Assembly: GCA_002418005.1 (NCBI GenBank)
Contig: DIDF01000056.1
Coordinates: 4,174-68,173 of the forward strand
Length of the DNA: 64,000 bases
Reading direction: 5' to 3'
DNA from: Lactobacillaceae bacterium UBA5807
Lineage (GTDB): Bacteria; Bacillota; Bacilli; Lactobacillales; Lactobacillaceae
The position numbers and the translations under genes were made by a program. The notes beneath the pieces were generated by a model. It was not told the DNA's origin. It ran no database searches and saw nothing but the letters and a program-made list of their open reading frames with translations. Position 1 is the first letter of the stretch. Each line of letters begins with the position of its first letter. Below are positions 10,602 through 49,397 of the stretch, one piece after another.

Positions 10602-10727
10602 GAAAAAACCTCCGTTATTAGTTATGGATTAATTGAATTTTACAGCTATTAATTATAATCCAATGGTCAAACAGAAACAGCCCTACTTGCCTCATACCAT
10701 TCAATTAGGTATACTCAAGGTGTCAAT

Positions 10728-10808
10728 AAAACATCTGGGGTGTCACGCAAACGTGGCTGAGAAAAACCCATCGAACCTGATCTGGACAATTCCAGCGTAG
10801 GGAGCATA
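10728..10808 (+). promoter_or_regulatory. TPP riboswitch
   Basis: GGGGTG...GCTGAGA..ACCC..GAACCTGATCTGGACAATTCCAGCGTAGGGA. A terminator hairpin CACCCAGGAAA/TTTTCTGGGTG + T follows at about 10846-10880. Upstream of a thiamine ECF operon. Confidence 0.93.
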
Positions 10809-10918
10809 ATTTTTTCGTGCAGTCTTATGACTAAGATGAGTGCAACACCCAGGAAATTCATTTTCTGGGTGCTTTTATTTTTCGAATACTCAGAAACAAA
10901 AAAATTGGAGGTATTGAC

Positions 10919-11500
10919 ATGGATAAGAAGAAAAGTAGAGATACTTGGTCTTTACGAAATATTATTTTGGTTGCATTAATTGCTATTTTTTGTGGAGTCA
11001 TTTTTTGGGGAGTTGACTTTATATATAATGCATTAACCGCATTACTTACCCCAATTGGTTTAGGACCCGCTGCTAACGATATCTTGATGGGATTATGGAC
11101 AATGGCCGGTCCTTTAGCAGGATACATTATTCATAAACCAGGTGCCGCTTTCTTGGCTGAATTCTTAGGTTCTGGGGTTGAAGCATTTTTAGGCGGCCAA
11201 TGGGGCGCTGCAACATTTATCTCCGGGCTAGTTCAAGGAATTCCTTCTGAGCTTGGATTTGCAGTAACCGGATATAAACGATACGATTGGGTTTCTTTAA
11301 ACCTTTCCATCTTCTTCACCGTTGTTATCACATTTGGCTGGGATATGATCCGAAATGGCTACAGTAAGTATCACTTTGGCTTACTGATTGCTTTATTTGT
11401 AATTCGTTATGTCTCAACGTTCATTTTTGGAGGCCTTTTAACTCGAGCAATATCCAAGATGCTTGATCGCAGCCAAATTTTGCCAAATACTGCCGCTTAA
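10919..11500 (+). CDS. ykoE: ECF transporter S component (thiamine/HMP precursor)
   Basis: W.LRNIILVALI, GLWTMAGPLA, KPGAA.LAE and GLVQG..ELGF; under TPP riboswitch control. Confidence 0.85.
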   Translation: MDKKKSRDTWSLRNIILVALIAIFCGVIFWGVDFIYNALTALLTPIGLGPAANDILMGLWTMAGPLAGYIIHKPGAAFLAEFLGSGVEAFLGGQWGAATFISGLVQGIPSELGFAVTGYKRYDWVSLNLSIFFTVVITFGWDMIRNGYSKYHFGLLIALFVIRYVSTFIFGGLLTRAISKMLDRSQILPNTAA

Positions 11501-11530
11501 TTAAAACTTTTGAATCGGGGTTCAATACAA

Positions 11531-12958
11531 ATGGCTGAAGTTGCTGTCAACAACTTTACATTTTCATATGCTAAAAGTAACTTTATGGTCCTAAATTACG
11601 TCAACGTAACTTTTCCAGCAAATCATTTTTCTCTTTTAACTGGACCTTCAGGAAGTGGTAAATCCACCTTACTAATGTTTATTGCTGGACTATACCCAAG
11701 CTTCACCGAAGGAAAATCAAAAGGAACCATTACTTTTGATGGCAAAAATATCACTGAAACACAACCACAGGAAAAAAATAAAATGGTTTCGATGATGTTT
11801 CAAAATCCTAACCAACAATTTGCCATGGACACAGTTTTTAACGAATTAGTTTTCGTTTTGGAAAACATCAACGCTGATCCTGCAAAGATGGATCAAACTG
11901 TCGATAACGCCTTGAATTTCGTAGGAATTTCTAAGCTAAAAAATCGCAAAATTAATACTTTATCCGGTGGTGAAAAACAGCGACTGGCCTTAGCTTCAAT
12001 TGTTGCAATGGATGCAGACGTTATTGTTTTGGATGAGCCATTTGCCAGCATTGATCCTGCTTCGCGAGTTGATTTGATAAATAAATTAAAGTTACTTCGT
12101 GATGAACACGGCAAAACAATAATTTTAGCCGACCATGATCTTAGCGATTATCAAAATGTTATCGATGATTTCTTTTTCCTTGACCCAGCTACTCACAAAA
12201 TCAACCTACAAAATCAAGATCAACAAAAGAAATTTTACGCTAATTTTGAGGACGCGCAGCACATCACTACCAAAGTTAAATTACCCGAAAAAACCGAAAA
12301 AGAAATTTTAAATATTCGTGATTTTACATTAGATCCTCACGGTGACGTTTTACTTAAATTAGCTAACTTCTCCTTTTATAAGGGCAAAACTACCTTGGTA
12401 ACCGGCCACAATGGAATTGGTAAATCCACTTTATTTGATGCCTTAACCAAGTTATTAAAGTATGAAGGAACAATAACTTACAATGGTCAAGATATCAAAA
12501 AGATTAAACCACTAAAATACGCTCAATCAGTAACGTTACTTTTTCAGGATGCTGAAAGTCAGTTTTTAAATATTACCGTTAAAGAAGAATTAGATTTATC
12601 AATGAAGAATCGTTTCTCTGCTCAATATTCTGATGATGAGGTCAAAAAAATGCTCGCAGAAATTGATCTCGCAAATCGTGGGGAACGAATTGTTTATTCT
12701 TTGAGTGAAGGGCAAAAAAAGAAGCTGCAAATTATTGAAATGTTAGTAATGGCACCTCCTGTTTTACTAATGGATGAACCATTCAAAGGTCTAGACTACC
12801 ACTCACTACTTGTAGTCGGCAATCTGTTAAATGAAGCCAAAACCAAATTTGGCCAAACTCAGATTATAATCAGCCACCAACTCAACGGGTTGGAAAATTT
12901 AGTTGATTATCACACTCACTTTGCTAATCAGACTATGAAATACCAGGAGGTGCTGTAA
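11531..12958 (+). CDS. ykoD: ECF transporter duplicated ATPase
   Basis: Two ABC domains (GPSGSGKS / LSGGEKQ and GHNGIGKS / LSEGQK). Likely start is ATG 11531. Confidence 0.85.
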   Translation: MAEVAVNNFTFSYAKSNFMVLNYVNVTFPANHFSLLTGPSGSGKSTLLMFIAGLYPSFTEGKSKGTITFDGKNITETQPQEKNKMVSMMFQNPNQQFAMDTVFNELVFVLENINADPAKMDQTVDNALNFVGISKLKNRKINTLSGGEKQRLALASIVAMDADVIVLDEPFASIDPASRVDLINKLKLLRDEHGKTIILADHDLSDYQNVIDDFFFLDPATHKINLQNQDQQKKFYANFEDAQHITTKVKLPEKTEKEILNIRDFTLDPHGDVLLKLANFSFYKGKTTLVTGHNGIGKSTLFDALTKLLKYEGTITYNGQDIKKIKPLKYAQSVTLLFQDAESQFLNITVKEELDLSMKNRFSAQYSDDEVKKMLAEIDLANRGERIVYSLSEGQKKKLQIIEMLVMAPPVLLMDEPFKGLDYHSLLVVGNLLNEAKTKFGQTQIIISHQLNGLENLVDYHTHFANQTMKYQEVL

Positions 12959-13612
12959 ATGAATCCTGGAATGAAATTGTTCTTGGTAATTTTAATTGCT
13001 TTGGAAATATCCTTTACCGAAAATTTAGTGGTTAACTTAATCTTAATTGCCGTCAGCTTTATTTATATTATTTTTCAAAAGATCAGTTTCAAGGCATTTT
13101 TGGCTTTGATCTTTGTGCCACTGTTACCTGCCGTAGCAATGTTCGTTTCTCAGCTGATGTACGGAACCGCAGGAATCGGTTTTGCCTGGATTCTGTTTAC
13201 TCGAATTTATGCCTACGTATTTTTAGGCGCAACATTTACCTTAACTTCAAACATCACCGACCTGGCATTAGCTTTGGAACAAGACTTTCGCTTGCCCTCA
13301 AAATTTGCCTATGGAGTTTTAGCGACTTTTAATTTAGTCCCTAAAATTCGCCAACAAGTAAAAATTATCAAGACTTCTGCTTTAATGCGCGGTGAGGTCC
13401 TTCACGTTTGGTCAGCTAAACTATACTTTAAAGCGATCCTTTCTTCTATCCAATGGTCGCAAAATTTGGCTGAGGCAATGACCTCTCACGGATTCGTTGA
13501 AGATGCCCCAAGAACTCATTACAAGGTCATCAAGATCACCTGGCAGGATTGGTCGTTATTTATTGGATCAATTGTGGCCGTTCAATTATTACTGTTTTTC
13601 ATTCGAAATTAA
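12959..13612 (+). CDS. ykoC: ECF transporter T component
   Basis: Hydrophobic, with MRG and AMTSHGF EcfT motifs. Confidence 0.85.
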   Translation: MNPGMKLFLVILIALEISFTENLVVNLILIAVSFIYIIFQKISFKAFLALIFVPLLPAVAMFVSQLMYGTAGIGFAWILFTRIYAYVFLGATFTLTSNITDLALALEQDFRLPSKFAYGVLATFNLVPKIRQQVKIIKTSALMRGEVLHVWSAKLYFKAILSSIQWSQNLAEAMTSHGFVEDAPRTHYKVIKITWQDWSLFIGSIVAVQLLLFFIRN

Positions 13613-14252: not shown

Positions 14253-14273
14253 TTAAATAAAGGCAGCGGCATA

Positions 14274-14318
14274 CAAAATAGCGTAATCAGAAAATTTTAT
14301 TCTGATTACGCTATTTTG
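14274..14318. terminator. bidirectional intrinsic terminator
   Basis: CAAAATAGCGTAATCAGAA...TTCTGATTACGCTATTTTG between convergent genes. Confidence 0.8.
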
Positions 14319-14343
14319 TTTTGAATTTAATTAAAAATGTTTT

Positions 14344-14652
14344 TTAATATAACTCAACTAACCAAGTATTTTCCTTACCTTTTTCATCTAATTTTTCTGG
14401 GTGATCCATTAACTCAGTGTTAACTTTAGCAATCTTGCCTGCAACCGGTGAATGAAGATCAGAAACGGCTTTGGCTCCCTCAACGGACACGAAGGAATCA
14501 CCTTCCTTAACTTCAGTCATCCCTTTTGGAAAAGCAACAAAGGATATTTCGCCAATTTCATCTTGGCCAGCTTCATTAATTCCTACTCTGGTATGGCCAT
14601 TTGATTGTTTTTCTTCCCAGTAATACTGCTTTTCATCTTCGTATTTATTCAT
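14344..14652 (-). CDS. GcvH-like lipoyl-carrier protein (short, lacks the C-terminal helix)
   Basis: RVGI...QDEIGEISFV, lipoyl-lysine motif VEGAKAVSDLHSPVAG, N..L...P and WL. Confidence 0.85.
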   Translation of the reverse strand: MNKYEDEKQYYWEEKQSNGHTRVGINEAGQDEIGEISFVAFPKGMTEVKEGDSFVSVEGAKAVSDLHSPVAGKIAKVNTELMDHPEKLDEKGKENTWLVELY

Positions 14653-14653
14653 T

Positions 14654-16039
14654 TTATTTTTCCTCCCAGTGAATCTCTGGATGATGTTTACTAAATAAAG
14701 TCAAAATTTTGTTAACTTTAAAATCAGCATTTTTAACTTTCTCGGCATTTGGTGTCATAAGCTCTTTAAGTTGTTCATTAGTTAAATACTTTCCTAATTC
14801 GCTGTCAGCCAGCATTACATCTTTAAGCTGCTGGTGCTCGTTATCAGCCTTAACCCGTAAGCGATACATCAAATCATGGGCATTCTCTCTGCCCATTTTT
14901 TTAGACAAGACCATCATAATTGAACCTGAGAACATCGTTCCGTCATCCAAAGCTAAATTTTTCTTCATTTGTTTGGTATCAAAATATCCGTTCTTTAAAA
15001 CATTAACTGCATAATTTAACGAACCAGAAAGATACATTGTCATTTCTGGCAACGCAACATAAAGATCACGCCAAACTGTGGTATCTTTTTCACCACTAAC
15101 CTGCATTTGGTCGTACATTAAAGACATTTCGTTGCGAATAACAGTGCTCAAATTAACCATAGCTTCACACATGTACGGTTCTCGTGATGTTGGAATCACT
15201 GTTGACCCTTGCCTACCAGGAGCATATGGTTCGTAAAATTCCTTAACTTGCGTTTGGCTCATATAAAGTAGTTCTTTTCCTAACCGGCCAAGCGACTGAG
15301 AAATTTCGGTAACCACGTGTAAATAATCGGCAAATCTTTCCCTTTGAGTGTGCCAATACATTTCTGGAGTAGCTAAACCAAGGTAGTCACAAAATTTGCT
15401 TTCAACTTCGTCACTATGATCGCCAATCATTGAAGATAATCCCTCGACATTTGCCAAACTACCAGCCAAAGAGAACGATTCTAACTTCTCAAGATTAGTT
15501 AGTAAGTGCTCTTGTTCATTTAAAAATATTCCCAACTTAAAACCTAAGGTTGTTAAAGATGCATAAGTTCGATGAGCAATTGCTGCGGTGAGGTCATCAC
15601 GGTGTTCTTTGGTTAGTTTAGCTAAAACTGCCAAAAGATCTTTCATGTATTCCTTAATGATTGCATGGGCTTCTTTTAGCTGTAAAACATAGCAGGTATC
15701 TTCGATATCCTCACTGGCAGCGCCATAATGCACAAATTGGCCAGAGTCATCATCGAAAAACTGTTGAACGTACTGGACAAAACCAGCCAAGAAGTGGCCA
15801 GTTCGTCCCGTAACTAATCTAAGAGCTCGCATATCAATTTTCTCTGGTTTAAGTTTTTCGGCAATTTCTTTATATGCGGATTCAGGGATCTTGCCATAAT
15901 CCGCCATTGCGTGAGCCAAAGCAATTTCTGCCTGACAAACAACTTTAAGTCGGTTTTCGTCAGTCCAAACCGCTCTCATCCTAGCAGTTGAATATTGATT
16001 TTGATTATAAAGTGAACCTAAAACCTCGCCGCTGCTCAT
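14654..16039 (-). CDS. fumarase/aspartase-superfamily lyase (adenylosuccinate lyase / CMLE-like) with a divergent active site
   Basis: HYGAASEDIEDT, H..ASLTTLGFKL, GSTVIPTSREPYMCE and MGRENAH. Confidence 0.8.
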   Translation of the reverse strand: MSSGEVLGSLYNQNQYSTARMRAVWTDENRLKVVCQAEIALAHAMADYGKIPESAYKEIAEKLKPEKIDMRALRLVTGRTGHFLAGFVQYVQQFFDDDSGQFVHYGAASEDIEDTCYVLQLKEAHAIIKEYMKDLLAVLAKLTKEHRDDLTAAIAHRTYASLTTLGFKLGIFLNEQEHLLTNLEKLESFSLAGSLANVEGLSSMIGDHSDEVESKFCDYLGLATPEMYWHTQRERFADYLHVVTEISQSLGRLGKELLYMSQTQVKEFYEPYAPGRQGSTVIPTSREPYMCEAMVNLSTVIRNEMSLMYDQMQVSGEKDTTVWRDLYVALPEMTMYLSGSLNYAVNVLKNGYFDTKQMKKNLALDDGTMFSGSIMMVLSKKMGRENAHDLMYRLRVKADNEHQQLKDVMLADSELGKYLTNEQLKELMTPNAEKVKNADFKVNKILTLFSKHHPEIHWEEK

Positions 16040-17091
16040 GAATTAATCACCTCTGATTTATTTGGATCCAAAATCATCTTAGCTATTGCATCGGCAGAAA
16101 CCTTGCCAATATTTTTTTCGAGATGACTGTTATGAAGAGCTTCTTTTAGGCTGTCATAGTTCATTGGCACACCTTTAAGATTATCTTCAATTTCACCTAA
16201 ATTACCTGACATTAATGAAAAATCACCGTAAATTTTTGGATGAACTAAAAAGCCATTTTGCACGGAAAATCCAATGCCGACAGTGCCAATTCCTTCAAAG
16301 TGCTGATCGTGATAAGTTTGATCATCCTCACTTGGACCATAAATCCATTCTTTAGAGCCATATTTTTCTTGATCAATTGCGTTTAAATCTTTAAAATCCT
16401 GATCTGTCAGCTTATAAGTGGGAATATCAGCCAAAGAGTCTGTCTTAAATACTTCTTTTAACATCATGTCCTGTATTTCATCAAAAGTAATATCCTTATA
16501 TTCTGGTTTGAAGTACTGTCGAATATTAGTAACTCGACTATGAACAGATTTAACTCCCTTAGAGGCTAACTTTGCCTTAGTTGGATGAAGAACTTTGCTA
16601 GCAGCATCCAAATCAACATCAATCATCAAAGTGCCTCCGCACGAAAATCTACTACCAATCTTTAAGGAGGACATCCCAGAGAATTTTTTCCCATTGACGG
16701 TCAGATCATTGCGCCCACCAAAAATAGCGTCTACTCCAAGTTTATGGAGAACTTTCAACGCTGGTTGAGCATAAAGCTGAAAGTTTTGATAATTGGTGCC
16801 ATTATCAGTATCAATAAAGCAATACGTTAGATTGCCGGGATCAACATAGACCGCTCCGCCACCAGCACCTCTTCTAGCCAATCGAATATTATGCTTTTTT
16901 AAATATTCCAAATTTACTTCTGCATAAACATTTTGATTAACACCACAAATGACAATTGGTGTCTGTGGGTGGAAAAAGTAAAATAAAGTATCATTAAGTT
17001 TTGGATGCTGCTCCAAGAATTCCGAGATTGCCTGATTTACTGCAGGGTCTTTTAAATAATTTAACCCGTTTGAAAAATCTACATAAATGAT
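16036..17091 (-). CDS. lplA: lipoate-protein ligase A
   Basis: N.A..E, ICGVNQN, RRGAGGGAVYVDPGNL, GRNDL..NGKKFSG, KGVKSVHSRVTNI and IYGDF. Start uncertain: the RBS fits ATC at 17091. Confidence 0.9.
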   Translation of the reverse strand: MIYVDFSNGLNYLKDPAVNQAISEFLEQHPKLNDTLFYFFHPQTPIVICGVNQNVYAEVNLEYLKKHNIRLARRGAGGGAVYVDPGNLTYCFIDTDNGTNYQNFQLYAQPALKVLHKLGVDAIFGGRNDLTVNGKKFSGMSSLKIGSRFSCGGTLMIDVDLDAASKVLHPTKAKLASKGVKSVHSRVTNIRQYFKPEYKDITFDEIQDMMLKEVFKTDSLADIPTYKLTDQDFKDLNAIDQEKYGSKEWIYGPSEDDQTYHDQHFEGIGTVGIGFSVQNGFLVHPKIYGDFSLMSGNLGEIEDNLKGVPMNYDSLKEALHNSHLEKNIGKVSADAIAKMILDPNKSEVINS

Positions 17092-17167
17092 AGTTATCAC
17101 CTCTAGTAAAAATATTTTACTAACCAAATTCAGTCTAGCACGCTCAAGGTGCTATTTGAGCATAATA

Positions 17168-17181
17168 TGAAAGCGAAATCA
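17168..17181. promoter_or_regulatory. putative cre (CcpA) site upstream of the lplA operon
   Basis: TGAAAGCGAAATCA matches TGNAANCGNWNNCW. Confidence 0.45.
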
Positions 17182-17387
17182 TATTAAAACCTTCTACAAA
17201 GAAAAAAATTATTCACCAATCATTCTTTAACTTTTCGGTTAGTTTAACACCAATCCCAATGGATAAAATTTAACGGTTTTGTAATGACATCATTTGCATA
17301 AAAAATATGTAATAAAAAAGTTACTGGAAAGGTATTTCATTCCAGTAACATTATTTTCTACGTATAAATTCAAAAAAATTATTATAC

Positions 17388-18557
17388 TTAATCGATATTA
17401 TTTTCGAGTAAAAATGATTTGAAGTAATCAAATGCCATTTCTCTAATGCTTTCGATACCGATCTTTCGGACAATATCGTCATTTTCGTCATCAAGGTCAA
17501 TCATTTCAAAAGTGAGAATGCCAGTTCGAGTTTCAAAACCCAAGGGGTAGCCCATGATACTTTTGCCACTAGTTAACTGCAGTCTAAGCAATTTCTTAAA
17601 CTTAATAGATGGCAGTAATATCTCCATCAAAATGTTGTCATTGTCATCAAAGGCCCGATCTGCATTAAGAACCGGCAGAGTAAATTCTTTGGTTGCCTTA
17701 TTATAATTAACAAATCTGCGCATGACAAAAAGATAGTCAGATTCAGTGACAATTCTATAAACATTATCGTACCGCATCCAAACGTAGCCACCAAAGTGAC
17801 CATTCATATCAATTACCATCATGACTAACTCGTTGTCGTTACTGGCAATTGCCTTGCCAACGTAAAAATACTTGCGGTCATCATTTGTATCAATGATGAT
17901 CATTTGATTCTTTAACTCTGCATGTTTAATGACTGCAGCAAACTTATCTTTATGGTCTCTGGTTAAATATTCATCGTCAACATGATTGTCAGCAATGATC
18001 GTTGGCAATATCTGTTCCAAAAGATTCAACTCAGTCCCACCAAATTCGATGGCAGAAATATCATCATTTTTGATTTTGGTTTGGTTTTTGTGCGTAAAGT
18101 TAAATTTATCAACGATGGAGAAAGTAACCTCATCGTGGTCAAAGTCGGTTATGATTCCTTCATGATACTGCATTTTTTTGGCCTTTTCCGTGACAATTAA
18201 GACCATTTGTTTGTTTTGTTTAACATGCGCAACTAATTTATCAAAAATTGAATCACTGATGTTAAATGGCATATTAAATTCAGTTTTGTTAGCCAAATCA
18301 TTTTTTTCGTCAAAAGCAATTCGATCTTTCATATTTGCAAGATCATAACTGTCTGTTTCAACCTTTTGAACCGAATCAATCTTCAGATAGACTTCACCAT
18401 CTTGAATCCCATAATCATTAAACGTCATGAGAATAAAGTCTTTATCGCTTAAATACTGAACAATTCCGGTATAGACAATCTCACTATCTTGTTGATAGAT
18501 ATTAATTAATTTTTCGTCGATCGGTGCAGATCTTAATTTATCATAATAAGTGTTCAA
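17388..18557 (-). CDS. conserved hypothetical protein with four tandem beta-rich (Sm/SH3-like) repeats
   Basis: TTG start at 18557 after AAGGAAAGG; internal repeats visible in the translation. Confidence 0.7.
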   Translation of the reverse strand: MNTYYDKLRSAPIDEKLINIYQQDSEIVYTGIVQYLSDKDFILMTFNDYGIQDGEVYLKIDSVQKVETDSYDLANMKDRIAFDEKNDLANKTEFNMPFNISDSIFDKLVAHVKQNKQMVLIVTEKAKKMQYHEGIITDFDHDEVTFSIVDKFNFTHKNQTKIKNDDISAIEFGGTELNLLEQILPTIIADNHVDDEYLTRDHKDKFAAVIKHAELKNQMIIIDTNDDRKYFYVGKAIASNDNELVMMVIDMNGHFGGYVWMRYDNVYRIVTESDYLFVMRRFVNYNKATKEFTLPVLNADRAFDDNDNILMEILLPSIKFKKLLRLQLTSGKSIMGYPLGFETRTGILTFEMIDLDDENDDIVRKIGIESIREMAFDYFKSFLLENNID

Positions 18558-18573
18558 AGCTACCCTTTCCTTT

Positions 18574-19548
18574 TTAAGAAACCGCATCCTTAACAAACTT
18601 GGTAAGTTCGTCACCCTTTTTGCCTGCGCTTAATCCTACAAGTAGTTTAATCCTGGCCTTCTGACCATTCAAGCCTTGGCACAGAGTTATTCCCATCTTT
18701 TTAAGCTGAATTCCGCCGCCCTCATAGTCATAAATTTCTTGAGCAACGCCGTTATAACACCGCGAGACCAACACAATTGGAATGTCATCATCGAGTATTT
18801 TTTGAATTCCGGGTAAAGTTTGGGGTGGTAAATTGCCGGCACCCAAGCCCTCAATAACCAAACCATTGGTATCTGGGTTATCAATTGCTTCAAATAAAGT
18901 ACTTTCCATGCCAGAATAAGCCTTTAAAAGATAAACATGATCAACAACTTGATCAATGTTACATACTTCGCCCGTAATCAATTTCTGGAAATAATATGGG
19001 CGATCTTTACTAATGACTCCAATTGGGCCAAAAGTCGGAGTCCTAAAGGTGGCAACATTAGTGGTATGAGTTTTGGTAACATATCTAGCAGTGTGAATCT
19101 CATCATTCATCACTACTAAGACCCCTTTGCCATATGACTCATCAGCTGCGGCCACCGAAATTGCCGAAGTAAAGTTATATAAACCATCTGAGCCAATTTC
19201 ATTTGAAGATCTCATTGCCCCGGTCACCACAATCGGCACAGTGTTAGGAAGAGTCAGATCCAAAAAATAAGCTGTTTCTTCAAGCGTGTCGGTCCCGTGC
19301 GTGACAACGACCCCATCTACGCCATCAGCAATTGCTTTTTTAATCCGTTTCATTATCTTTAACATTATTTCTGGTGTAACATGAGGGGACGGCAAATTAA
19401 ACATCTCATCTGTAACCAGATTTATTTTACCCTTTAAAATCACTTGCTTTTGGGCAATCGGATTTGTAGCATTTGGAACAACTTCACCTTCAGAATTTTG
19501 AGACATTGATATCGTTCCGCCGGTGTGAATTGCCAAAATTGTTTTCAT
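18574..19548 (-). CDS. ansA: L-asparaginase
   Basis: Motifs HTGGTISM, THGTDTLEETAY, TGAMRS and GLGAGN. Confidence 0.93.
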   Translation of the reverse strand: MKTILAIHTGGTISMSQNSEGEVVPNATNPIAQKQVILKGKINLVTDEMFNLPSPHVTPEIMLKIMKRIKKAIADGVDGVVVTHGTDTLEETAYFLDLTLPNTVPIVVTGAMRSSNEIGSDGLYNFTSAISVAAADESYGKGVLVVMNDEIHTARYVTKTHTTNVATFRTPTFGPIGVISKDRPYYFQKLITGEVCNIDQVVDHVYLLKAYSGMESTLFEAIDNPDTNGLVIEGLGAGNLPPQTLPGIQKILDDDIPIVLVSRCYNGVAQEIYDYEGGGIQLKKMGITLCQGLNGQKARIKLLVGLSAGKKGDELTKFVKDAVS

Positions 19549-48988: not shown

Positions 48989-49016
48989 AGAATTAAATTC
49001 TTATTCTAATTCATTA

Positions 49017-49190
49017 ATGTTAGCGCTCCGCAAACAACTTGTTGCCTGCGACAGTCCATAGCTTATTGAACTATGTCCCAGCGAGCTTCGTGCTACTTCA
49101 CGAAGTGCCTCGGCAACTTCCCCTTTCACTAGGTTCAAAGTTTAAGTAGAAACTCCACTAGCTAATTATGTCGGTTGCAACCTCTAATCT
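49017..49190 (-). promoter_or_regulatory. lysine riboswitch (L-box)
   Basis: Reverse complement AGAGGTTGC...GAAAGGGGAAGTTGCCGA...GCTGGG...GACTGTC...GGAGCGCTA, upstream of lysA. Confidence 0.92.
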
Positions 49191-49397
49191 ATATGTTTAA
49201 TTATTACAAAGTTTATAATTAATTCACAGATTCGTCAACCCTTGAAAGTTATAAAAACCAAATTTTTTCTTTATTTATCCCGGCTTAAAGCATTTTTCAT
49301 GAAAATAAATCAATTTTCAGCTTTGCTAATTACATTAAAAATGCTAAACTTTTGCTAATAATACAGAGAATTTTTGACATGGGAGTGGAAGTTAAGA

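Follow-up and report, generated by a model that had tools for sequence, protein, structure and literature searches.

Here we describe a three-gene unit in a 64,000-nucleotide stretch of DNA from Lactobacillaceae bacterium UBA5807 (contig DIDF01000056.1; the whole stretch is called the window below), in which a lyase of the fumarase/aspartase superfamily is encoded between a lipoate-protein ligase (LplA) and a stand-alone GcvH-like lipoyl carrier. This trio is best read as a single transcription unit that is both recurrent and self-contained. To judge from its sequence, the lyase descends on a long, fast-evolving branch from the S-(2-succino) lyases (2SL) of scm/yxe loci; where such loci encode an acetyltransferase and a deacetylase, the trio encodes LplA and GcvH. 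We propose, in a reading that could well be wrong, that the lyase makes or breaks a thioether between the reduced lipoyl arm of the carrier and fumarate or a related enoate. The genes of the trio are listed here in the order of transcription.

16036 to ~17091, minus strand: lplA, lipoate-protein ligase dedicated to the trio (longest open reading frame 16036-17127)
14654-16039, minus strand: lyase, 461 aa, fumarase/aspartase superfamily, ADSL/CMLE/2SL subgroup, with a rewritten active site
14344-14652, minus strand: GcvH-like lipoyl carrier, 102 aa, with lipoyl-Lys61 in VEGAKAV

The three genes run lplA, lyase, gcvH-like on the minus strand and are closely packed. The lplA stop and the lyase start share an ATGA, a 4-nt overlap; 1 nt separates the lyase stop from the ATG of the gcvH-like gene, whose Shine-Dalgarno sequence GGGAGG lies within the 3' end of the lyase gene. 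Genes for E1, E2, E3, gcvT and gcvP are all absent from the 64-kb window. A preliminary description, made from the sequence of the window, had already noted three tightly coupled genes, the lack of these partner genes and a 102-aa carrier with its lipoyl Lys in VEGAKAV, and each of these observations is borne out by the open reading frames, the overlap and gap, and the carrier's GCV_H match and K61.

Recurrence of the trio

In a survey of gene neighborhoods across 400 Lactobacillaceae genomes, we found 12 genes for lyases of the same clade, distributed over 10 genomes. An LplA gene lies directly upstream of every one (12/12) and a GcvH gene directly downstream of most (10/12); the two LplA-lyase pairs with no adjacent GcvH are extra copies, each in a genome that has a complete trio as well. 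Among the 13 more distant 2SL-type lyases in the same 400 genomes, none has an LplA or GcvH neighbor. The trio is present in Bombilactobacillus bombi, B. apium, Lentilactobacillus parafarraginis, L. parabuchneri and L. farraginis, with the Lentilactobacillus genomes belonging to the same genus as UBA5807 by GTDB kinship. Its flanks vary between genomes, so that the trio behaves as a cassette. It is also found at 39-41% identity on Enterococcus-like contigs (Enterococcus willemsii and metagenomes), where it takes two gene orders. One is substrate-binding protein (SBP)-LplA-lyase-GcvH-permease-ATPase-GST-like, where GST stands for glutathione S-transferase, and the other is GcvH-LplA-SBP-permease-lyase-GST-like. 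Two gene orders at this level of identity point to function rather than to one inherited arrangement, and recurrence across genera puts the arrangement far from chance. The preliminary description had raised the question of whether the lyase lies repeatedly between lplA and gcvH-like genes; the Lactobacillaceae counts and one of the two Enterococcus-like gene orders answer that it does.

The lyase clade is nonetheless rare and narrow. An exhaustive search of 1.84 billion cluster representatives returned two that belong to it, and the next match was at 31% identity. In all 12 Lactobacillaceae cases and on all Enterococcus-like contigs the lyase gene sits beside an LplA gene, never alone. The converse does not apply, as pairs of LplA and GcvH from the same LplA clade also occur without the lyase: among 25 ligases of this clade in the genus, about nine are followed by the lyase, nine are followed directly by the carrier and seven stand alone, with up to four copies of the ligase per genome. 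Because lyase-less pairs exist and the lyase is never found without the ligase, the pair appears to be the base module and the lyase an add-on. This add-on behavior agrees with the earlier idea that the lyase occupies an "effector slot". Phylogenies of LplA and of GcvH reveal no strict co-inheritance with the lyase.

The literature that we searched on S-(2-succino)cysteine (2SC) and 2SL makes no mention of a lipoate ligase or a GcvH protein in that context. The trio is a variant that combines features of scm/yxe-2SL salvage loci and of LplA2/GcvH-L modules, with no description in the literature searched, and the earlier statement that no system of this architecture had been described stands for the same literature.

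Relatives of the lyase

The best relatives outside the clade share 30-35% identity with the trio lyase (34-35% at the top) and come from Dickeya, Pectobacterium, Brenneria, Gilliamella, Bacillus, Paenibacillus, Trichococcus and others. Their loci encode a GNAT acetyltransferase, an amino-acid ABC importer (SBP, permease and ATPase), an M20 amidohydrolase and often a PrpD-like protein, and are thus of the scm/yxe type. In the tree, the LplA/GcvH-linked lyases form a single clade with a Shimodaira-Hasegawa-like approximate likelihood ratio (SH-aLRT) support of 100, on a stem of 1.37. This clade groups with the lyases of 2SL loci (SH-aLRT 93); its branch is long, and the order within the joint clade is not settled. 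A further long stem, of 1.32, leads to the subclade of Lactobacillaceae trios. In the window and the LplA/GcvH-linked loci alike, the lyase has no neighboring gene for a ScmL/YxeL-type acetyltransferase, a ScmP/YxeP-type M20 deacetylase or a PrpD-like protein. An M42/M20-type peptidase gene found about 4 kb downstream in one LplA/GcvH-linked locus (L086) is unrelated.

The biochemistry of this nearest family is informative. 2SL was identified in the scm/yxe loci for S-(2-succino)cysteine breakdown by Hillmann et al. 2022 (PMC9706529), where it was shown to interconvert N-acetyl-S-(2-succino)cysteine with fumarate and N-acetylcysteine reversibly. The enzyme also succinates dithiothreitol (DTT), mercaptoethanol and coenzyme M, and leaves glutathione and coenzyme A untouched, and its discoverers asked whether enzymes act on protein-bound 2SC adducts (PMC9706529). 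A 2025 paper from the same group reports that acetylation is crucial in all described cases and that the known enzymes are inactive on succinated proteins (PMC12757645). The preliminary description had cited an S-(2-succino)cysteine lyase as a separate fact; that 2SL turns out to be the nearest family of the trio lyase gives real weight to the idea of a thiol-enoate adduct.

Alongside the trio genes, the Enterococcus-like loci encode an ABC importer of the amino-acid type and a GST-like protein of the Xi class (YqjG type). The binding protein of this importer is 29-30% identical to YxeM-type proteins, compared with 27% to generic ones. The GST-like protein keeps the catalytic cysteine of the CPxA motif (L086 6387-7259, L089 5385-6275, L043 672-1787 and L066 9087-10268), and its gene recurs both in loci of the LplA/GcvH type and in two acetyltransferase (GNAT)-type scm/yxe loci of Bacillota. 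The 2SC/2SL literature searched does not mention a role for this gene in 2SC metabolism. In the window's own genome there is no GST-like homologue, and no importer adjoins the trio.

A rewritten active site

The lyase has Lyase_1 and ADSL_C domains and scores under every NCBIfam cut-off. XcbD (NF052536) is its top NCBIfam match, at 274 bits against a cut-off of 600; it reaches 224 bits with the PurB model TIGR00928 (cut-off 326.2) and 245.7 and 169.5 bits with the pcaB models (cut-offs 595 and 355.75, respectively). These NCBIfam scores are about half those of the lyase from the Dickeya 2SL locus, and with Lyase_1 the trio lyase scores 73 bits, where the genome's four other members of the family reach 220-310. 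By sequence, the closest solved structures are trans-aconitate decarboxylase Tad1 (PDB 9h3i; E 3e-58), followed by ADSL and 3-carboxy-cis,cis-muconate cycloisomerase (CMLE), both at about 1e-51.

Residue H82, the general-acid His H156 and the loop Ser of the tripeptide Gly-Ser-Thr are kept. The substrate motifs of the 2SL type, HYGxTTQD, GRTHGxQA, GS[ST]TMP[HQ]KRNP and EHERD, are not; the window lyase has HYGAASED, AIAHRTYA, GSTVIPTSREP and GEKD in their place. The TTQD segment has become AASED, GRTHGMQA has become AIAHRTYA (THGMQA to AHRTYA), MPHKRNP has become IPTSREP and EHERD has become GEKD. Structures of fumarase C, ASL and ADSL place the replaced residues among those that bind substrate carboxylates in the superfamily. 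Across 24 distinct clade members with a median identity of 66%, the rewritten motifs HYGAASEDIEDT, WHTQRERF, GRQGSTVIPT and GEKDT.VWR fall in the 93rd-97th conservation percentile, and only the positions of the former loop Lys and Asn vary within the clade (S/V and E/N/C). Since the new motifs are so highly conserved, the site seems to have been re-specified and not to have decayed, and the pocket looks respecialized rather than dead. The 2SL loop is better preserved in the importer-linked lyases (LPTKQNP) than in the lyases of loci with the trio only.

The ligase, the carrier and the host genome

The trio LplA contains both LplA-B_cat (PF21948) and Lip_prot_lig_C (PF10437), exceeds the TIGR00545 cut-off (325 bits against 280) and carries the KKFSG lysine motif. 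Ligases of its clade, from trios and lyase-less pairs alike, read GGGAVYVD at a site (residues 88-96 of the window LplA) where the other LplAs of the same genome read GGGAVYHD or GGGAVYQD. The carrier matches GCV_H (PF01597) at 77 bits, over a cut-off of 22, and falls below the cut-off of TIGR00527 (76.6 against 115.85); E58 and K61 are invariant across 16 relatives. It therefore has the GCV_H fold and the lipoyl-lysine motif of a glycine cleavage H protein but not the equivalog-level score of one, and no match to GCV_T or GDC-P, the models for its T and P partners, turned up in the 87%-complete genome. An absent C-terminal helix had earlier been taken to set this carrier apart, and that distinction falls away: a short C-terminus is common to all four GcvH-like proteins of the genome, the solo GcvH included.

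The genome assembly spans 2.04 Mb and is 87% complete; within it we did not find LipA, GcvT or GcvP. It contains five LplA genes above the equivalog cut-off, four GcvH-like genes, a gene for a LipL-like transferase and one E2 gene (contigs C71, C77, C33, C76, C78, C28, C43 and C55). The E2 and E3 genes belong to a pyruvate dehydrogenase (PDH) operon on contig C55, the LipL-like transferase is encoded on contig C28, and a housekeeping-type LplA (426 bits) and a solo GcvH are located away from the trio. With this complement, the label of an "orphan" lipoyl module given in the preliminary description no longer applies. PurB (contig C85, 543 bits), ArgH, AspA and a FumC-like protein, the last encoded beside a flavocytochrome-c fumarate reductase, are also present, which indicates that the housekeeping fumarate roles are filled and that fumarate is a real metabolite in this organism. 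In line with the earlier view, then, the lyase of the trio is not PurB, nor is it one of the other housekeeping lyases. Fumarate reductase occurs in all 10 trio genomes but also in 247 of 401 Lactobacillaceae, and so is not discriminating.

Contig C76 (L102) holds a second, lyase-less pair of LplA (6560-7540) and GcvH-like (7576-7884) genes, whose products are 57% and 48% identical to those of the trio. The pair is divergently oriented from a Tpt1/KptA-family gene (5028-5591) and a 253-aa open reading frame without a family match (5594-6355), the region as a whole spanning 5028-7884. The Tpt1/KptA family comprises RNA 2'-phosphotransferases that employ NAD+ and transfer ADP-ribose. By analogy with SirTM/Macro, the Tpt1/KptA-family gene may occupy another "modifier slot".

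A model for the trio and the alternatives

In the model that we favor, LplA would load scavenged lipoate onto Lys61 of the GcvH-like carrier, a step with strong family evidence behind it in a genome where no LipA was found. The reduced, dithiol form of the lipoyl arm would then serve as the thiol substrate of the lyase, which would reversibly form or cleave a thioether between fumarate, or a related enoate, and a lipoyl sulfur. The lipoyl arm would suit such an enzyme, being a small, amine-free dithiol on a flexible tether and chemically near the DTT and N-acetylcysteine accepted by 2SL. In evolutionary terms, LplA and GcvH would have replaced the acetyltransferase and deacetylase, which make and unmake the N-acetylcysteine substrate in scm/yxe loci. 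The physiological role is the least certain part. The unit may remove succinate adducts from a scarce lipoyl cofactor, or the carrier thiols may instead be reversibly capped according to the fumarate level. The host presumably cannot make lipoate, and its fumarate would come from asparaginase, AspA, ArgH, PurB and the FumC-like enzyme, with a fumarate reductase also present. A parallel would be the ADP-ribosylation by SirTM/Macro that guards lipoyl-GcvH-L in Staphylococcus aureus. We rate the making or breaking of a lipoyl thioether as possible rather than probable. A more specific version is doubtful: the lyase could be a protein-directed thiol succinase/desuccinase that caps both lipoyl sulfurs with fumarate according to the fumarate level, and thereby guards or releases a reserve of scavenged lipoate.

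Several observations weigh against the model. Two LplA-lyase pairs have no adjacent GcvH, and the lyase-linked LplA and GcvH proteins do not form one clade across both lyase subclades. The importer and the Xi-class GST-like gene of the Enterococcus-like loci suggest an imported small-molecule substrate, which lies outside the model. Carboxylate-binding residues have changed, namely the Thr that precedes the catalytic His, the Lys and Asn of the loop and the three residues TTQ, so an enoate other than fumarate may be used and the canonical beta-elimination may be compromised. Finally, the presence of PDH E2/E3 and a LipL-like transferase means that the carrier could simply relay lipoate. As for the preliminary interpretation, its recurrent unit and its non-housekeeping lyase are supported, its ideas of an effector slot and a thiol adduct are strengthened by the 2SL ancestry, the trap and release that it pictured stays conjectural, and its "orphan" label and its point about the C-terminal helix have not stood up.

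In the alternative that we take most seriously, though we still think it unlikely, the lyase acts on a free S-conjugate, imported or endogenous (2SC-like or another enoate adduct), and lipoyl-GcvH is a dithiol cofactor or reductant. The carrier could recycle the catalytic cysteine of the GST-like enzyme or pull an unfavorable lyase equilibrium, and loci with the trio only would represent a reduced pathway. In its favor, the Enterococcus-like trios lie inside an SBP_bac_3/permease/ATPase importer together with the YqjG-type GST-like gene and its retained CPxA cysteine, and that gene is also present in two GNAT-type scm/yxe loci. The importer-linked lyases are also those that keep more of the 2SL loop, and the known 2SL enzymes act on small molecules only (PMC9706529; PMC12757645). 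Yet UBA5807 itself has no GST-like homologue and no importer beside its trio, what is conserved in Lentilactobacillus and Bombilactobacillus is the trio by itself, and the importer binding protein is no nearer to the YxeM type (29-30%) than to generic proteins (27%). An association by location only is improbable in our view. Here the LplA and GcvH-like proteins would be one of several lipoate-salvage or relay pairs feeding PDH E2 through the LipL-like protein, and the lyase would be unrelated apart from shared regulation. PDH E2/E3 and a LipL-like gene are indeed in the genome, nine lyase-less LplA-GcvH pairs of the same LplA clade occur in the genus and relay from GcvH-L to E2 is documented in S. 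aureus (PMC12440151). However, such a scenario sits poorly with a lyase that is beside LplA in every Lactobacillaceae and Enterococcus-like case and never alone, with gene order shuffled in one lineage, whose gene lies, translationally coupled, between those of ligase and carrier, and that coexists with a housekeeping-type LplA (426 bits) and a solo GcvH elsewhere.

It is more improbable again that the lyase is a non-catalytic pseudoenzyme whose role would be to bind, shield or regulate either the ligase or the lipoylated carrier. The loss of several canonical carboxylate-binding residues, the variable positions of the former loop Lys (S/V) and Asn (E/N/C) and the Lyase_1 score, low beside those of the genome's four other members (73 bits against 220-310), would all be expected of such a protein; the invariant general-acid His and loop Ser would not, and the rewritten motifs are among the most conserved parts, as fits a working pocket. 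An ordinary adenylosuccinate lyase or CMLE we find hardly credible. Homologues bear these names in public records and the general family matches agree with them, but the scores fall short of both the TIGR00928 cut-off (224 against 326) and the pcaB cut-offs (170-246 against 356-595), the genome has a true PurB (543 bits), the canonical GSSAMPHKRNP loop is changed with its Lys and Asn gone, and no aromatic-catabolism genes are nearby.

We also considered and rejected a nitrosuccinate lyase linked to a CreE-like gene. A CreE-like gene is absent from all related loci, and the CreD and nitrosuccinate-lyase models score below the 2SL, ADSL and XcbD models. The window does contain a CreE-like open reading frame of 626 aa (5369-7249, plus strand), which has no NCBIfam match at E 1e-5 and no counterpart in any trio locus.

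Regulatory signals and neighboring genes

The signals around the trio are listed here.

17132-17140, minus strand: extended -10-like element TGCTAGACT, by resemblance to the consensus only
17168-17181, strand not given: cre-like palindrome TGATTTCGCTTTCA in the promoter region, with one mismatch to TGWNANCGNTNWCA
17314-17349, minus strand: intrinsic terminator of the upstream 408-aa gene, GTTACTGGAA..TTCCAGTAAC followed by T6, read from the sequence
14273-14319, between convergent genes at the 3' end of the trio: hairpin with a 20-bp stem, from a terminator scan

The longest lplA open reading frame reaches a TTG at 17127, at or upstream of the extended -10-like TGCTAGACT (17140-17132). A likely start is instead the ATC at 17091-17089, with GTG 17100 as an alternative, because this ATC aligns with the ATG of Bombilactobacillus lplA and lies 6 nt after the Shine-Dalgarno sequence GAGGTG (17103-17098). 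The codon aligned to the Bombilactobacillus ATG is ATC or ATT in 8 of 11 loci. These candidate starts each lie 6-10 nt downstream of a good Shine-Dalgarno sequence (window 17088-17103; loci L004, L005, L109, L110, L112 and L114), and in four loci, the window included, no canonical start occurs between the Shine-Dalgarno sequence and the aligned codon. This pattern suggests that the lplA family of the trio may use a non-AUG start.

The element TGCTAGACT resembles TGCTATACT, which is found at the matching relative position upstream of the trio in several Lentilactobacillus loci. The palindrome TGATTTCGCTTTCA is a possible CcpA site. Sites resembling the catabolite-responsive element (cre), with at most one mismatch, occur in 6 of 11 promoter regions of the trio clade, compared with 1.6% of shuffled regions; across the whole window the motif count is not enriched, so that recurrence in the promoter regions of other loci is the only suggestive point. 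The site in the window is upstream of the -10-like box, and in most other loci it is downstream. Neither a riboswitch nor a T-box turned up ahead of the trio in an Rfam scan.

The 408-aa gene upstream has a terminator of its own, which separates it from the trio. At the other end, the preliminary description had a terminator closing the unit. The hairpin at 14273-14319 is a clear terminator for the convergent gene; its T-run is on the plus strand only, which leaves it merely plausible as a terminator for the trio. The unit consists of just three genes between two terminator-like hairpins, with an asparaginase, a protein without a family match and transporters as neighbors. Directly upstream, on the same strand, are an L-asparaginase gene and then the gene for the 408-aa protein, which is soluble and has no Pfam or NCBIfam match (17388-19548, minus strand). 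On the other side, a thiamine pyrophosphate (TPP) riboswitch at 10726-10821 precedes a three-gene transporter (10726-13612) made up of an ABC_cobalt-type permease, a double ATPase and a CbiQ-type component, which fits a thiamine-precursor uptake system. A lysine riboswitch (78.6 bits) lies at 49013-49194 on the minus strand of the window.

Comparison with known systems

The trio lyase shares with 2SL of scm/yxe loci the same fold, the catalytic His and the Ser loop, 30-35% identity and a common grouping in the tree, and the chemistry proposed for it, C-S lyase action on amine-free thiols including a dithiol, is a feature of 2SL. Enterococcus-like trio loci keep the ABC importer, and the Xi-class GST-like gene is found in some scm/yxe loci too. 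Unlike those loci, the trio is without GNAT, M20 and PrpD-like genes, has LplA and GcvH instead, and has a lyase on long stems with rewritten motifs.

The LplA2/GcvH-L/SirTM/macrodomain operon of S. aureus and Streptococcus pyogenes (PMC4518038; PMC12440151) likewise has a dedicated ligase and a stand-alone carrier outside the glycine cleavage system, joined to an enzyme that could modify the carrier, in a genome that keeps a housekeeping LplA and GcvH. The partner in the trio differs, being a fumarase-superfamily lyase that is a candidate modifier only, and the unit contains no SirTM, macrodomain or LLM oxidoreductase. A precedent for an enzyme dedicated to removing an acyl or dicarboxylate adduct from protein-bound lipoyl thiols is ABHD11 of mitochondria (PMC12643935). 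The likeness is one of analogy only, as ABHD11 has an unrelated fold, that of an alpha/beta hydrolase, and hydrolyzes a thioester instead of eliminating a thioether.

Tad1 (PDB 9h3i), ADSL and CMLE belong to the same subgroup as the trio lyase and illustrate how widely chemistry diverges there; they keep the GSSxMPxKxNP loop that the trio lyase has lost. XcbD, the top NCBIfam model, is the 3-sulfopropionylcysteine synthase of bacterial coenzyme M biosynthesis, and its name implies a C-S product of cysteine and a sulfopropionyl group. XcbD adds the thiol of cysteine to an enoate other than fumarate, sulfoacrylate. The trio lyase, at 274 bits, is far under the XcbD cut-off of 600, and no other xcb genes are near it.

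Thiol succination by fumarate counts as damage that is chemically stable, and the known enzymatic routes for succinated thiols deal with free, N-acetylated S-(2-succino)cysteine only (PMC12757645). The trio is a concrete candidate for an enzyme that acts on protein-bound adducts, and it consists of three small soluble proteins. If the succinase/desuccinase version of the model is correct, the lyase would be the first known enzyme to write or erase succination on a protein-bound group, and the trio would represent a second way of guarding a lipoyl carrier, chemically unrelated to ADP-ribosylation by SirTM/Macro. Stand-alone LplA/GcvH-like pairs have multiplied in this genus, with up to four ligase paralogues per genome, and have been combined with different partners, which suggests that lipoyl carriers may be general-purpose dithiol handles beyond the 2-oxoacid dehydrogenases and glycine cleavage.

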